A stretch of DNA of 64,000 bases from a virus (Duplodnaviria > Caudoviricetes), in IMG/VR virus record IMGVR_UViG_3300021387_001464, positions 1 to 64,000 of that record. One strand, written 5' to 3'. Position 1 is the stretch's first letter, and every line of letters starts with the position of its first letter. Below the pieces are notes generated by a model. That model was given only the letters and a program-made list of their open reading frames with translations, was not told the origin of the DNA and did no database searches. Shown one piece after another: positions 60,117 to 64,000 of the stretch. Made by a program: the position numbers and the translations under genes.

Positions 60117-60503
60117 ATGAACAAATTCCAAAAGGGCGATATGGAAGAAATACAGGATGCTTGCAGCGAGGGCAAGGAATTTTACTTAGACAGCCCTGAT
60201 AGTGACCGTAGGGCGTTCTTCAAGTTTGGAGGAACGACTTATTTCATTACGCGGGATGGCAAGGTGCTCTCATCGCGAGGCGACGGGTATCGCGAGCACG
60301 AGATTGCGCAGTATAATGGCAAGGGTTATCGTCGTGTACGGCTACGTGGCAAGACATTCAAGGTTCACCGCCTGGTGGCCGAGGCATTCGTGCCCAACCC
60401 TGACAACTTGCCCTATGTGCTGCACATTGACGGGGACCGCGAGAATAACATCTGTAGAAACCTGGAGTGGTCCGCAAAGCAGAGCAACCACCATGGGAAG
60501 TGA
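60117..60503 (+). CDS. HNH (HNH_3/NUMOD4-type) endonuclease
   Basis: VHRLVAEAFVPNP..V.HIDGDRENN...NLEW. Confidence 0.9.
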   Translation: MNKFQKGDMEEIQDACSEGKEFYLDSPDSDRRAFFKFGGTTYFITRDGKVLSSRGDGYREHEIAQYNGKGYRRVRLRGKTFKVHRLVAEAFVPNPDNLPYVLHIDGDRENNICRNLEWSAKQSNHHGK

Positions 60504-60575
60504 AAAGTGAAAAGTGAAAAGTGAAAAATTTCTTGCTTAGGCAAGCGTACTAAAGAAACGATTAGCTACCGCCGT

Positions 60576-60730
60576 ATGAGTTATGTCGATAAACCCATCA
60601 TCCTTGGCAGGTACAGCCCGAGTCAGAATGGCATAGTGGTAAGCCCACGCGGACCCGCACTCTGCCTTGCAGGGGGGGTAACGGACACGATACGGACAAG
60701 CCGAAAATACTGATAGAACATGAATTGTAA
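60576..60730 (+). CDS. TRD-like mini-gene 1, frameshifted (G7; G8 restores)
   Basis: MSYVDKPIILGRYSPSQNGIVVSPRGPALCLAGG|GNGHDTDKPKILIEHEL*. Confidence 0.7.
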
Positions 60731-60863
60731 AACAATGCTATTGAATCCACAGGGGGGGGTATGCCGCACCATCAAGTCACAGTATTACAAAAGCAGCGTG
60801 GCGAATTTCCTGCTGCAGACCACCAGAGGAGCAACGGCAGTATTGATAGAATATGAACTATAA
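60720..60863 (+). CDS. TRD-like mini-gene 2, in frame (G8)
   Basis: MNCKTMLLNPQGGVCRTIKSQYYKSSVANFLLQTTRGATAVLIEYEL*. Confidence 0.75.
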   Translation: MNCKTMLLNPQGGVCRTIKSQYYKSSVANFLLQTTRGATAVLIEYEL

Positions 60864-61078
60864 GCGCATACCGAAGCCAGCGAACCTGCGAGACCATACA
60901 CCGAGTATGGCCGAAGCATTGCCCTATATGATAGAGGCGTGCGGTTTGAGGGGGGGGGTGTTTGTTCGACTATCGCCACTTTGTGTACGACACCATCGAC
61001 GGATGCTACCCGTTCCCAGTGACCACAAGGATTCATGCCAGTAATCAGATTTGGCTATGCAAAGAAATAGAACTTTAA
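60853..61078 (+). CDS. TRD-like mini-gene 3, frameshifted (G9; G8 restores)
   Basis: ..ACGLRGG|CLFDYRHFVYDTIDGCYPFPVTTRIHASNQIWLCKEIEL*. Confidence 0.6.
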
Positions 61079-61092
61079 AACAAGATAAAAGA

Positions 61093-62598
61093 ATGATTGC
61101 AAAAGTTTATCCAGATGGGCATCCTGACTTGCAAGGCAAGAAGGACCCGACGCACCCAGTGCGCTATTTCGACATCCGTAAACTCACTCCACGCAAGTGC
61201 TATTCACTGATGGGCGTGCCGCCGCAGCAGATCGACACGCTGATGAAAACCGAAAAGAAACCATATATGGCATGGGTGGGCGTAGATGCCGAACTGGCTG
61301 TGTTCGGACTGGAGCCGAGTGCCACGCGCCGCGAGGTCGATGAAGCATATCGCGAGGCTATCGAGAGTCTAAGAAGACCCACCCCCGACCCCTCCCTGGG
61401 CGAGGGAGGGGAGTGTGAAGACCCCGACAGACCCACCCCCATGCACCTCCCTGCTGAGGGAGGGGAGTGTGAAGAGCCTGAAATGAGCGAAGAGGAGGTG
61501 GCCCTGATGCGTGAGAACTACGATATGAACTACCAGCGCATCATCGCTGCCAGCCAGGAGCAGCGTTACGGTGACGTGCAGATTATTGCCAACTCGTCGC
61601 ATTACAAGCTGGCGGGTAACTCCATCGTCTGCGACGTGCTGATGTATATCTACGAGGAACTGATGTACCCGACGGGCCGCCGACTGCCGCAGGAGCAGAC
61701 CGACCTGTTCGCCCAGCCGCAGTTCCGGCTGACCCGAAACTGGAAGAAAGAGCCGCTGAAGTTGGTAACACTTTGCAGCGGCTACGACTCGCAGGCAATC
61801 GCTATGGATATGCTGCAACAGCGCTATCCGGACTTCCGATGGGAACTGAAGGCATGGAGCGAGTTCGACCCCGAGAGCAGCCGGCCACTGGAAGAGCAGC
61901 CCGCCGTGGTGGCCCATAATCTGCTGTTCCCACAATACAAGGATTTGAACCGTGGCGACATGACCAAGGCCGACTGGAGCGACCTCGCCGATGCAGGTAT
62001 CGACCTGCTGACATATAGTACTCCGTGTCAGTCCATCTCACAGGCTGGCAAGCGAGAGGGTATCAAGAAAGGTAGTGGCACTCGCAGCGCCGTGCTGTGG
62101 AGCACCGAGATGGCGGTAGAGCATCTGCGACCGAAGGTGCTATTGCAGGAGAATGTGCGGGCGCTTATCAACAGCGTGAACATGCCCGACTTCCGCGAGT
62201 GGTGCAGCCTGCTGGAGAGCTACGGCTACGTGAACTTCCTCGCGCCATCGTTCCCGACGGTCTGGGGCACCGACAAGCGCGACAAGAAGACCGTGCCGGG
62301 CATCCTGAACGCCAAGCATTATGGTGTGCCACAGAACCGCGAGCGGGTGTATATGGTCTCCATTCGTGCCGACCTGCTCGGTGGCACGCAGTATGAGTTT
62401 CCCCGTCCTTTCCCGCTCGACAAGTGCATTGCCGATGTGCTGGAGGATAATGTCGATGAGCGTTTCTTCCTGAAGCCCGACTCGGTAATCAAGTTCCTCA
62501 CAGTGAATGAATCGACTGACAGTAACGATATACACTATACGGTAACGGACCACAAACTCTCCGATGAAGAAATCGCCAAGATTCGTAGTGGAAAGTAG
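61093..62598 (+). CDS. circularly permuted DNA (cytosine-5) methyltransferase lacking an internal TRD
   Basis: Motif order IX (IRKLTPR..LMG), X (YKLAGNSI), I (LCSGYD), IV (TPCQ), VI (QENV), VIII (PQNRERVY), then a short tail. Confidence 0.9.
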   Translation: MIAKVYPDGHPDLQGKKDPTHPVRYFDIRKLTPRKCYSLMGVPPQQIDTLMKTEKKPYMAWVGVDAELAVFGLEPSATRREVDEAYREAIESLRRPTPDPSLGEGGECEDPDRPTPMHLPAEGGECEEPEMSEEEVALMRENYDMNYQRIIAASQEQRYGDVQIIANSSHYKLAGNSIVCDVLMYIYEELMYPTGRRLPQEQTDLFAQPQFRLTRNWKKEPLKLVTLCSGYDSQAIAMDMLQQRYPDFRWELKAWSEFDPESSRPLEEQPAVVAHNLLFPQYKDLNRGDMTKADWSDLADAGIDLLTYSTPCQSISQAGKREGIKKGSGTRSAVLWSTEMAVEHLRPKVLLQENVRALINSVNMPDFREWCSLLESYGYVNFLAPSFPTVWGTDKRDKKTVPGILNAKHYGVPQNRERVYMVSIRADLLGGTQYEFPRPFPLDKCIADVLEDNVDERFFLKPDSVIKFLTVNESTDSNDIHYTVTDHKLSDEEIAKIRSGK

Positions 62599-62784
62599 TG
62601 CTGTGCTGCGGGGCGTGCGGACAGAGCACGCCCGTGCAGTACGCCGTATCTACGGTGACAGGGGGGGTACTGCCACTTCTCGGACCGCAACTACCTGCCT
62701 GCTACCGATGGCTGCAGCAACACCATCACTGGCGTACAGAAGGACAACCTATTGATAGTTGAATATGAATATAAAGAGTGTTAA
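62564..62784 (+). CDS. TRD-like mini-gene 4, frameshifted (G7; G8 restores)
   Basis: ..VRTEHARAVRRIYGDRGG|YCHFSDRNYLPATDGCSNTITGVQKDNLLIVEYEYKEC*. Confidence 0.75.
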
Positions 62785-62908
62785 GCCCTACGACGATTAC
62801 AATTCTACCCCCCCCCGACGCGATGGTGTCATTGGCACCGTTACAAGGCAAATTGGAACATCAGCACCAAGGAACGGCTGGAAAATATTGATAGAGTATG
62901 AAATATAA
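62765..62908 (+). CDS. TRD-like mini-gene 5, in frame (C9)
   Basis: MNIKSVKPYDDYNSTPPRRDGVIGTVTRQIGTSAPRNGWKILIEYEI*. Confidence 0.75.
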   Translation: MNIKSVKPYDDYNSTPPRRDGVIGTVTRQIGTSAPRNGWKILIEYEI

Positions 62909-63062
62909 CAGGATATTGCAAATAGGCAACCTTACTGAAGGTGCAGGCAGAAACAACCCGCAGCGCAGAAGGCTCTACTCGCCCTATGGCATTGCACCAA
63001 CGGTGTACGGCTATCAAGGCGGTGGCAATTTGCAACCCTTGGTATTGATAGAGTATGAGTAG
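62898..63062 (+). CDS. TRD-like mini-gene 6, no homopolymer
   Basis: MKYNRILQIGNLTEGAGRNNPQRRRLYSPYGIAPTVYGYQGGGNLQPLVLIEYE*. Confidence 0.8.
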   Translation: MKYNRILQIGNLTEGAGRNNPQRRRLYSPYGIAPTVYGYQGGGNLQPLVLIEYE

Positions 63063-63255
63063 CGTTACCCCCATATTGCGGCAAGTCCCTGTTCGGCGAG
63101 TGCGGACGGAATGGGCAAAGGCCATCCGACGAGAGACGGGCACCAACCCGTTTCAAGCCAAACAACTGGAGGAGTTTGTGTCGGACTACATGCCTACCAT
63201 CACCGCCAGTGCAAACATCGAGAACTACATAAAGGTAGAGTATGATATTGATTAA
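63055..63255 (+). CDS. TRD-like mini-gene 7, no long homopolymer
   Basis: ..VRTEWAKAIRRETG..MPTITASANIENYIKVEYDID*. Confidence 0.75.
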   Translation: MSSVTPILRQVPVRRVRTEWAKAIRRETGTNPFQAKQLEEFVSDYMPTITASANIENYIKVEYDID

Positions 63256-63424
63256 AGAAACGATGCCCAACGAAGACCGCTTCCCTGTCCGTATCTCAGC
63301 AAGTCGTGGCAGGGGGGGGCAAAGACCGTTCCATCAGGTCATTGAACTCGGATCGTCGCAAGCCACAAACACCATCACATCAGTACAAAAAGATAATCTG
63401 GTATGGATAGAGCGAGATATTTAG
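63242..63424 (+). CDS. TRD-like mini-gene 8, in frame (G8)
   Basis: ..SASRGRGGQRPFHQVIELGSSQATNTITSVQKDNLVWIERDI*. Confidence 0.8.
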   Translation: MILIKETMPNEDRFPVRISASRGRGGQRPFHQVIELGSSQATNTITSVQKDNLVWIERDI

Positions 63425-63556
63425 TTGGCGTACATCCGTTCTCTCACGCTTTGGAGTGTGAGGGCAAAATATGGGGGGGGGCAAATCAGTCCTGCCCTGC
63501 GGAGTACGGATTATAAATGTCCTCATTGTGTATTGATTGAGTATGAAGGAGTTTAA
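63403..63556 (+). CDS. TRD-like mini-gene 9, frameshifted (G9; G8 restores)
   Basis: MDRARYLVGVHPFSHALECEGKIWGG|QISPALRSTDYKCPHCVLIEYEGV*. Confidence 0.75.
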
Positions 63557-63723
63557 GTTTATTGGATGGACACGGCTCGGCAGTGGAAAAGGTGACGTAT
63601 CAAAGTATCATCTGCGCCACTACTGTAACGCCATAACCTCGTTTGCAGGGGGGGGGTATTGGCAAGGATTCGCAGACTGGAATGTATAACACCACACCGT
63701 ATGTATTGATAGAATATGAGTAA
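63543..63723 (+). CDS. TRD-like mini-gene 10, frameshifted (G9; G8 restores)
   Basis: MKEFKFIGWTR..YCNAITSFAGG|GIGKDSQTGMYNTTPYVLIEYE*. Confidence 0.75.
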
Positions 63724-63911
63724 AGAAAAGAAAGTTCGCCGATGCGACAACATTGCAGGGAAGTGGATGCCCGATGGCTCTATCCGCTTCTACCAAATGA
63801 ACGAGCGGAAAGGCGGTGTGCCCGAACTTGTCAACGGCTACGCTGGGGGGGGTCATGCCCTGTATCATAGCAGGCCATGAGCATTATGTTATTGTAGATT
63901 ATGACCTATGA
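63716..63911 (+). CDS. TRD-like mini-gene 11, frameshifted (G8; G7 or G10 restores)
   Basis: MSKEKKVRR..PDGSIRFYQ..GYAGG|VMPCIIAGHEHYVIVDYDL*. Confidence 0.65.
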
Positions 63912-64000
63912 GTAACGTCAAGCATTATCCAACCGACGGGCGACCGTTTCTCTCCACCGCTTTGAGGGGGGGGCAGTTCGTGCTGCAAGTTCGACAAGCC
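63908..64000 (+). CDS. TRD-like mini-gene 12, open through G8, truncated by the window end
   Basis: MSNVKHYPTDGRPFLSTALRGGQFVLQVRQA... Confidence 0.6.
   Translation, partial: MSNVKHYPTDGRPFLSTALRGGQFVLQVRQA

Follow-up and report, generated by a model that had tools for sequence, protein, structure and literature searches.

A chain of mini-genes around a methyltransferase core

We analysed the first 64 kb (positions 1–64,000, here called the window) of a 111,678-bp contig from a Caudoviricetes virus, IMG/VR record IMGVR_UViG_3300021387_001464. Towards the end of the window, 15 short open reading frames (ORFs) flank the core gene of a C5 methyltransferase, and one short motif of about 15 bases, which we call the joint, recurs at the boundaries between these cassettes. 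The phage nature of the contig is apparent from its PHROG matches, which include a helicase, a sliding clamp and a peptidase. Its host probably belongs to the Prevotellaceae, the only hint being one 104-kb relative contig binned with a rumen Prevotellaceae metagenome-assembled genome; the sequencing runs that contain the stretch are gut and sheep-gut metagenomes. The same layout is found in 13 viral contigs, with cores 54–88% identical, and in one genome contig (related loci are referred to below by L numbers). The GenBank phage collection held no record covering at least 80% of the core and yielded no cultured relative or host.

When up to two mismatches were allowed, ATTGATAGARTATGA matched the plus strand of the window six times, at 60709, 60842, 62887, 63044, 63532 and 63705. 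Shuffled sequence gave a chance expectation of 0.26, none of 100 shuffles reached six matches, and the minus strand of the window had no match at this threshold. Another copy at 62751 holds a 3-nt insertion (TTG ATA GTT GAA TAT GAA), looser copies lie at 63231 (AAG GTA GAG TAT GAT), 63403 (TGG ATA GAG CGA GAT) and 63888 (ATT GTA GAT TAT GAC), and four further joints follow past the window end (64141, 64268, 64546 and 64661). With the looser forms counted, the motif is present at each boundary of the 15-cassette array (60576–64682). A repeat search ranked it as the top direct-repeat family of the region, with eight copies of 29 nt and five copies of 27 nt; every copy is direct and none is inverted. 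The same 7–16 nt recur in direct orientation every 130–290 bp.

Read in frame 1, the joint encodes [ILV]-L-I-E-Y-E and then a stop after 0–4 codons. Of the 11 cassette-to-cassette junctions that the window contains, 9 take the next ORF's ATG from TAT-G. D5/D6 and D8/D9 depart from this: the D6 ATG is placed 10 nt further upstream, and the D9 ATG, at 63908, shares letters with the TGA stop (ATGA). In the frame of that ATG, canonical copies read TGA-TAG-xxx-ATG and variants contain TAA-AGG-TAG, TAG-TAG or a single stop, while the third frame is closed by the TGA within TATGA. The motif sites given by an earlier note on this DNA were all recovered by reading the sequence in its three frames, and its L-I-E-Y-E frame was read again here. 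Its description of a TAT-G start holds for all but the two junctions just named, and its TGA-TAG-xxx-ATG holds for the canonical copies but not for the variants with other stops or only one. The features are as follows.

60576–61078 and 62564–64682, plus strand: array of 15 short ORFs (44–100 codons), U1–U3 and D1–D12 respectively, flanking the core ORF
61093–62598, plus strand: C5 methyltransferase core without target-recognition domain (TRD); 501 codons; Pfam PF00145; motifs IX-X first, then I-VIII
60705–60730, plus strand: junction U1/U2; tail ILIEHEL-stop; U2 ATG at 60720 through CAT-G; TGA-TAG just upstream in the U2 frame, at which the off-frame path of U1 (G7, out of frame) terminates exactly
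60838–60863, plus strand: junction U2/U3; tail VLIEYEL-stop; U3 ATG at 60853
61064–61095, plus strand: degenerate terminal tail of U3; KEIEL-stop, without ATG; core ATG at 61093 overlaps a TGA
62564–62598, plus strand: core/D1 overlap; D1 ATG at 62564, 35 nt inside the core 3' end, in the +1 frame; this ATG is conserved in L009 and L013
62749–62784, plus strand: junction D1/D2 with the 3-nt insertion; tail LIVEYEYKEC-stop; D2 ATG at 62765; the off-frame path of D1 (G7) terminates on its TGA-TAG
62885–62908, plus strand: junction D2/D3; tail ILIEYEI-stop; D3 ATG at 62898
63042–63062, plus strand: junction D3/D4; tail VLIEYE-stop; D4 ATG at 63055; left edge of the D4 block common with L004
63229–63255, plus strand: junction D4/D5, loose; tail KVEYDID-stop; D5 ATG at 63242; right edge of the D4 block
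63401–63424, plus strand: junction D5/D6, alternative design also present in L002, L005 and L009; tail WIERDI-stop; D6 ATG at 63403, 10 nt upstream of the usual place; overlap 22 nt
63530–63556, plus strand: junction D6/D7; tail VLIEYEGV-stop; D7 ATG at 63543
63703–63723, plus strand: junction D7/D8; tail VLIEYE-stop; D8 ATG at 63716
63888–63911, plus strand: junction D8/D9, alternative design; tail VIVDYDL-stop; D9 ATG at 63908 over the TGA stop as ATGA

The module end encodes the next start codon

Codon choice at the joints was analysed in eight non-redundant genomes, which provided 59 internal junctions and 10 terminal tails, that is, tails of the last cassette or of the cassette preceding the core. 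All 59 internal junctions join co-directional ORFs by a stop/start overlap. Measured back from where the preceding stop codon ends, the ATG is 4–25 nt upstream (mode 11), with 29 junctions at 11 nt, 11 at 14 nt, 10 at 8 nt and 5 at 4 nt. At eight of the 59 the offset of the ATG from the tail is different and the ATG is nevertheless kept, with the next ORF in the -1 frame (five ATGA overlaps at +8 and three at -10).

The Tyr or His codon of the tail ended in T in 55 of 55 internal cases, compared with a background of 46% for TAT (p = 3e-19). This constraint was relaxed in the terminal tails: five had a T-ending codon and four a C-ending one (TAC or CAC; Fisher p = 2e-4 versus internal), and in three of the five T-ending tails the next codon is AAT or CAT, hence no ATG is formed. 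The same change can be followed within single cassette types. Tails of D9 type read ATA-GAA-TAT-GAC where a cassette follows (window, L001 and L003) and ATC-GAA-CAC or ATC-GAA-CAT where D9 is last (L002 and L004), and D7-type tails carry TAT-G within the array versus GTT-GAG-CAC before the core. These phages show no general preference for TAT or ATA. The needs of frame 2 restrict the synonymous choices in frame 1, and the joint is dual-coding sequence under selection.

The residue itself shows the same dependence on context. Among standalone proteins in our representative library, 20 of 23 have Tyr as the residue that follows the module end, compared with 0 of 13 fused proteins, and this Tyr seems to owe its presence largely to the next ATG carried by its codon. 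The surroundings of the ATG are also distinctive: AT content reaches 68–76% from -15 to +20, compared with 49% array-wide, and cassettes open with Lys/Asn-rich, AT-rich codons. The T-ending codons, the AT-rich island and the Lys/Asn-rich beginnings therefore point to real start sites and argue against frameshifting. Initiation in Bacteroidota is influenced by adenines at -3, -6, -12 and -13 (PMC6847099). The Bacteroidota -7 promoter motif TAnnTTTG was not found on the plus strand of 59900–64900, a weak test that fits a single transcript.

Genes that overlap by a few bases are translationally coupled at the local level, and such overlaps are over-represented among genes for subunits of heteromeric complexes (PMC6728339, PMC10666635). 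By analogy with these, translation across the joint is likely to be coupled.

The last cassette, D12, lies beyond the window (64279–64682, equal to L018:4279–4682). Its junction has no ATG, the D11 tail reading TAT-CAT, and its frame is open back to the G10 tract of D11, as it also is in L001 and L004. One start codon and one tract may here choose between D11, D12 and off.

Homopolymer tracts and closure of the other two frames

Eleven of the 14 G/C runs of at least 7 nt on the contig fall in the 4-kb array, and 11 of the 15 modules bear such a tract.

60672–63973, plus strand: array tracts in the window, at 60672 (G7), 60752 (G8), 60950 (G9), 62661 (G7), 62808 (C9), 63312 (G8), 63473 (G9), 63648 (G9), 63845 (G8) and 63966 (G8)
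64331: eleventh array tract (G10), beyond the window

Four of the tract-bearing cassettes are in frame through the tract and seven are out of frame by one base. Tract lengths also differ between close relatives. L001 and L003, 94% identical over 3.1 kb, are separated by three indels, two of which are a single G in a tract, and L019 differs again at the same tracts. Among the strain runs, U2 has G7 instead of G8 in X2, X4 and X3, and D1 has G8 instead of G7 in X4 and X3. All these length differences come from assemblies, in which homopolymer error is possible.

To follow ribosomes that leave the frame at a tract, we computed 78 off-frame paths from the poly-G/C tracts. Thirty-two of them end within -12 to +3 of the next ATG and two pass it. 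Nineteen of the 32 that end at the joint are in the next ORF's own frame and would otherwise enter the next cassette. The joint stops would in this way insulate neighbouring cassettes from each other's phase state, as far as the computed paths go.

Codon choice at the Ile position bears on the same question. In the five tract-rich genomes the Ile codon is ATA in 21 joints, ATT in 3 and ATC in 2, and where Val replaces it the codon is GTA in 7 and GTT in 2. The preference for ATA is strong against background (p = 1.7e-10) and persists against the equally AT-rich ATT (p = 3e-5), and it is not present in tract-poor genomes. The third base of ATA falls at position -5, which is not among the initiation determinants reported for Bacteroidota (PMC6847099), and ATA (or GTA) yields TAG in the next ORF's frame. 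Codon -4 likewise favours xTA, though xTA makes no stop there. All three frames are closed at the joint.

Cassettes are gained, lost and reordered at the joints

Cassette order and content vary among the 13 relatives, in all of which the tail is kept as a peptide. Cassettes of D7 type are found downstream of the core in the window and L002 and immediately upstream of it in L001, L003, L004, L007–L010 and L013; the L009 copy is an in-frame fusion with the core. Five genomes have the U1 type upstream, another five have it as the final downstream cassette, and D9 stands ahead of D11-D12 in three genomes and behind them in two. The D4 block (63043–63258) is 88% identical to L004 and has joints at both edges, and in L004 neither neighbour of D4 has a detectable counterpart at the matching position.

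Several of these changes can be placed to the nucleotide. L008 lacks exactly one cassette of L013 and L010, with the crossover in TGAATAT. In strain contigs, X3 joins 63528 to 63702, which removes D7 and leaves 9 nt (TGTATTGAT) common to both ends, and X4 joins 63714 to 63907, which removes D8 and again leaves 9 nt (TATGAGTAA) common to both ends. The crossovers in L008, X3 and X4 share 7–9 nt of the motif. A contig of X3 also joins 62741 to 62886, so that D2 is absent, and in both X3 and X4 there are connections starting at 63245, the D4/D5 junction. Over all strain contigs, 16 of 18 ends of such connections fall within 25 nt of a cassette ATG, where 30% would be expected (p = 3.5e-7). The strain evidence consists of Logan assembled contigs, not reads, and uncovered stretches and connections with sides shorter than 30 nt were not used alone. 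Assembly collapse is unlikely because the longest common junction strings seen (about 16 nt) are shorter than the 31-letter index words. Turnover of cassettes with crossovers borne by the motif is thus seen directly, and the role of the motif as a recombination substrate is supported but not proven by these sequence comparisons.

The cassettes resemble recognition modules and the core lacks one

We built a profile (A3) from three cassette types and compared it with the representative library, where it matched 490 clusters. The best 150 of these comprised 78 proteins of at most 120 aa and 72 longer ones. The long matches that we checked (P0139, P0155, P0161 and others) are PF00145 enzymes with 2–5 tandem stretches in the variable region, with E values down to 1e-14. 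P0139 carries its tandem modules between motifs VIII and IX, each closing with hydrophobic residues and Glu, and the window's module types D1/D5, D3 and U1/D12 can be recognized there in tandem. Such placement of homologues between motifs VIII and IX of PF00145 enzymes is that of multispecific-type TRDs. The best PDB match of the A3 profile, M.HhaI 235–257, is inside the TRD and is weak (E = 0.36). A PDB sequence search with the single cassette D3 returned nothing at E of at most 10, and fused, longer homologues of D4 were looked for without success, a result of little weight. Judged by these homologies, each cassette is in all likelihood one multispecific-type TRD module written as its own ORF. 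A pseudogenized multispecific enzyme was also considered; it was rejected on the layout, conserved with selected ATGs in at least 13 genomes.

The core complements this picture. Aligned to M.HhaI, the core of L009 places its residues 91–144 on HhaI 271–319 (motifs IX-X) and its residues 236–393 on HhaI 52–204; this makes the chain a circular permutation, with no counterpart of the HhaI TRD (about 205–270). The window core has the same motif order, IX-X-I-VIII, which is a permutation of M.BssHII type. It begins MIAKVYPDG and stops after the start of the variable region, and no TRD is retained in the chain. Most members of the large metagenomic core family start with MIAKIYPDG without a TRD and end just past the start of the variable region, and a single TRD is fused at the core N-terminus in some relatives only (L009 ORF 5812..7122). 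The free TRD modules may act in trans by docking on the core, a possibility made plausible by the reassembly of C5 methyltransferases that are split beside the TRD (PMC5944983).

The core varies in several further respects. Between motifs IX and X, the window core has about 130 inserted residues, which include a tandem 54-nt repeat (RPTPDPSLGEGGECEDPD / RPTPMHLPAEGGECEEPE; 61375–61481); this region is strain-variable, with 45 nt skipped in X4, and the shorter cores of L007–L010 and L013 do not have it. In contigs of X2 and X4, 57 nt of the core (window 61968–62026, between motifs I and IV) are swapped for 237 other letters, as if co-occurring strains had a core variant with an insertion. In L013, a frameshift close to motif IV (L013:6609–6648) splits the core into two overlapping ORFs and could be an assembly error or mark an inactive copy. 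Some related cores carry poly-C tracts: L003:6095 (C8), L001:193 (C8), L019:4095 (C7) and L002:6127 (C10). The tract lies in motif IX (RKLTPPEC) in L001, L003 and L019 and just past motif IX in L002 (LMGVPPP); the reading frame is kept through it in L001 and L003 and lost in L019 and L002, and the window core has no such tract. A core-borne poly-C could be a master switch of the whole enzyme. Finally, the methylase cores of P0025, P0029, P0032, P0040 and P0152 contain inserted intein and homing-endonuclease domains (PF14890, PF14528, PF13403).

What the joint may do

Taken together, we think it probable that the mini-genes form an operon in which the motif is the standard joint: it would end one module, start the next, close the remaining frames and serve as the site at which cassettes are exchanged. 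TTG-ATA-GAR-TAT-GAR codes for the conserved hydrophobic module end, [LIV][LIV]E, as in fused homologues, and the T-ending Tyr/His codon together with the G of the next Glu/Asp codon forms the ATG of the next mini-gene within a 35-nt AT-rich island. Ribosomes would probably start at this ATG by local termination-reinitiation or by entry into unstructured RNA, which is what one expects of Bacteroidota, blind as they are to Shine-Dalgarno sequences. TAT-GAx places a TGA in the third frame and xTG-ATA-G a TGA-TAG in the frame of the next gene, so that all three frames are closed at the ATG. A ribosome put out of frame by a poly-G/C tract would then halt at the joint and spare the neighbour, and each cassette could therefore switch alone. 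The recurring 7–16 nt could act as short homology for deletion, insertion and exchange of cassettes between phage strains, because the same letters recur directly at such close spacing.

A more ambitious proposal is that the joint works as a universal adapter, in which docking tail, ribosome restart, frame reset (with independent poly-G switches and combinatorial phase variation) and the trade of modules by co-infecting phages are combined. We consider this possible, at somewhat worse than even chances. With similar reserve, the adapter could be likened to an integron cassette array without integrase whose cargo is specificity subunits of a cytosine methylase.

The overall interpretation offered by the earlier note, in which the motif couples neighbouring cassettes, stops frameshifted ribosomes and provides microhomology, finds support here. 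It had named two observations that would reduce the motif to a protein-level constraint, an invariant cassette order and freely varying synonymous positions. Neither was made: order and content differ across relatives, and the Tyr/His codon is invariably T-ending internally and relaxed at terminal tails. Its suggestion that frameshifted ribosomes are stopped agrees with the computed paths, 32 of 78 of which end at the joint and two go past it. Mapping breakpoints, which it had proposed for related genomes, placed three one-cassette indels within the motif, with 7–9 nt of it at the crossovers of L008, X3 and X4 as the predicted microhomology, and produced one counter-example (L009/L013). Only its tandem stops had to be divided: the TAG (through ATA or GTA) is enriched, in tract-rich lineages only, and the TGA is largely a by-product of Leu-Ile.

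A number of observations weigh against the joint as we propose it. By codon usage alone a next-frame TGA is expected in about 70% of Leu-Ile tails, and to speak of tandem stops overstates selection. The ATA bias is lineage-specific and its link to tracts rests on about three independent clades; the correlation between tract number and next-frame stops per genome is suggestive only (Spearman 0.66, p = 0.055, n = 9 related genomes), and window junctions that follow tract-free cassettes have the stops too. The usual overlap of 11 nt is longer than the -4 and -1 overlaps with measured coupling. D12, without a junction ATG, must be reached otherwise. The two-cassette indel between L009 and L013 breaks about 20 nt downstream of both ATGs, outside the motif, and selection for intact cassettes would also leave breakpoints at their edges, whatever the mechanism. 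As to docking of the tail, an AlphaFold2 model of the natural TRD-core fusion of L009 was confident in the core and gave the TRD a predicted local distance difference test score (pLDDT) of only 22–33.

Some of these points would be accommodated by a plainer explanation, in which the motif is an AT-rich initiation region plus a LIEYE tail, the stops are by-products, recombination has no part and rearrangements that cut cassettes are simply lost. The AT-rich island from -15 to +20, the A at -3, which is a known Bacteroidota determinant (PMC6847099), the expected TGA of Leu-Ile tails, the favoured xTA at codon -4 that makes no stop and the one indel outside the motif all fit it. It does not account for the 21 ATA against 3 ATT, set by a third base at -5 that matches no known determinant, or for the loss of this bias in tract-poor genomes; 19 off-frame paths would enter the next cassette without the stops, and three precise one-cassette indels share 7–9 nt of the motif. 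We regard this explanation as unlikely. If the constraint were at the protein level only, with L-I-E-Y-E needed and the ATG and stops accidental, conservation of the tail peptide in all 13 relatives and the retention of Tyr or His in terminal tails despite the codon change would follow readily. The 55 of 55 T-ending internal codons, relaxed terminally, the shift of D9 and D7 orthologues from ATA/TAT to ATC/CAC when last and the confinement of this Tyr to standalone proteins (20/23 against 0/13 fused) make such a constraint very improbable as the whole explanation.

Programmed +1 frameshifting or ribosome hopping, which would join core and cassettes into a multispecific polyprotein, is suggested by the mostly +1 frame of the next cassette, with the tail frame stopping just past the motif, by the existence of fused multi-module homologues and by the missing start codon of D12. 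What is conserved is nevertheless the ATG and not a shift site, and it is lost at terminal tails; both +1 and -1 relations occur, the 8 of 59 internal junctions with other offsets still supply an ATG, the tail-to-stop distance varies from 0 to 5 codons, the Lys/Asn-rich and AT-rich N-termini are typical of real starts, and twelve serial shifts would leave almost no product. There is very little chance, in our estimate, that the array is read in this way. As a class, a programmed frameshift site was rejected on the conserved ATG, the presence of both frame relations and the variable tail-to-stop distance. The gain, loss and reordering of cassettes at the motif would also be expected if a dedicated site-specific recombinase acted on it, in the manner of shufflons and integrons. 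The motif copies are all direct with none inverted, no recombinase was found among the neighbouring ORFs scanned, and the crossover core is just 7–9 nt and variable, which makes this the most improbable of the explanations considered. A site-specific recombination site or invertase shufflon was likewise set aside as a class, there being no inverted copies and no recombinase in the scanned neighbours.

Sequence upstream of the array

An HNH_3 endonuclease gene (window 60117–60503) lies directly upstream of the array, and similar DNA is present upstream of the arrays of L002, L003 and L004. The neighbouring ORFs that were scanned contained no recombinase; they comprise the HNH endonuclease and five ORFs without a Pfam match (four upstream, one downstream). 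Between the HNH gene and the first cassette lies a (GTGAAAA)4 repeat (window 60500–60530). Its summed contig depth was about 10,000–45,000 in all four runs and many contigs leave it for unrelated sequence, therefore it must be a very widespread short repeat in these metagenomes.

Comparison with known systems

Neither split TRD arrays nor this joint turned up in full-text searches of the literature. Should the joint function as proposed, the phage would hold a bank of independently switchable, exchangeable specificity modules for one methylase core. As an anti-restriction strategy, such a bank would balance being protected from classical restriction enzymes against being exposed to methylation-dependent ones. 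The joint would also represent a natural design rule for chaining small ORFs in organisms without Shine-Dalgarno pairing, by means of tail codons, an ATG and stops in all three frames. Two questions become testable: whether free TRD peptides of 45–100 residues can programme a C5 methyltransferase in trans, and to what extent repeats of 7–16 nt drive modular phage-genome evolution. Free-standing TRDs would further be attractive parts for engineered, targetable methylases.

Close parallels are the multispecific C5 methyltransferases of Bacillus phages, reportedly described by Trautner and colleagues as M.SPRI, M.Phi3TI, M.Rho11sI and M.H2I. Like these enzymes and the fused P0139, the array combines several TRD modules of about 40–60 residues, presumably one per target, with one catalytic core. 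Unlike them, where the modules lie in one polypeptide between motifs VIII and IX, each module here starts and stops separately, the permuted core has no TRD, and 11 of the 15 modules contain a homopolymer tract.

Phase-variable methyltransferases control the phasevarions of Haemophilus, Neisseria, Helicobacter and Campylobacter. G tracts have been described in Campylobacter (PMC8355987). As in phasevarions and simple sequence repeat contingency loci, tracts of 7–10 G or C within ORFs differ by one base between close relatives and thereby switch the frame. In phasevarions one repeat switches a whole enzyme, whereas the array has one switch per module, in a phage, and the stops of the joint would insulate the modules.

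A chain opened in the variable region is also seen in the naturally split M.AquI (alpha and beta) and in the permuted M.BssHII, M.Alw26I, M.Esp3I and M2.BsaI (PMC5944983), and the IX-X-I-VIII order of the core is that of the permuted enzymes. Fragments split next to the TRD can reassemble (PMC5944983). The known split and permuted enzymes differ from the array in keeping the TRD on one piece; they have no bank of free TRDs and no repeated joint.

With respect to the joint itself, the nearest systems are coupled overlapping gene pairs that work by termination-reinitiation (ATGA/TGATG; Huber et al. 2019 and 2023, PMC6728339, PMC10666635), which are likewise co-directional with an ATG within a few bases of the upstream stop, and whose products are typically subunits of one complex. 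The classical ATGA kind accounts for five of the 59 internal joints. The methylase and specificity-subunit genes of EcoKI, hsdM and hsdS, also overlap and are coupled (PMC3510504). The usual overlap here is instead 11 nt (also 8 and 14), which is rare elsewhere, and the host clade is probably one without Shine-Dalgarno pairing. In contrast to such pairs, including hsdM-hsdS, the joint is repeated at least 12 times in series, lies inside a conserved C-terminal peptide and closes the other two frames.

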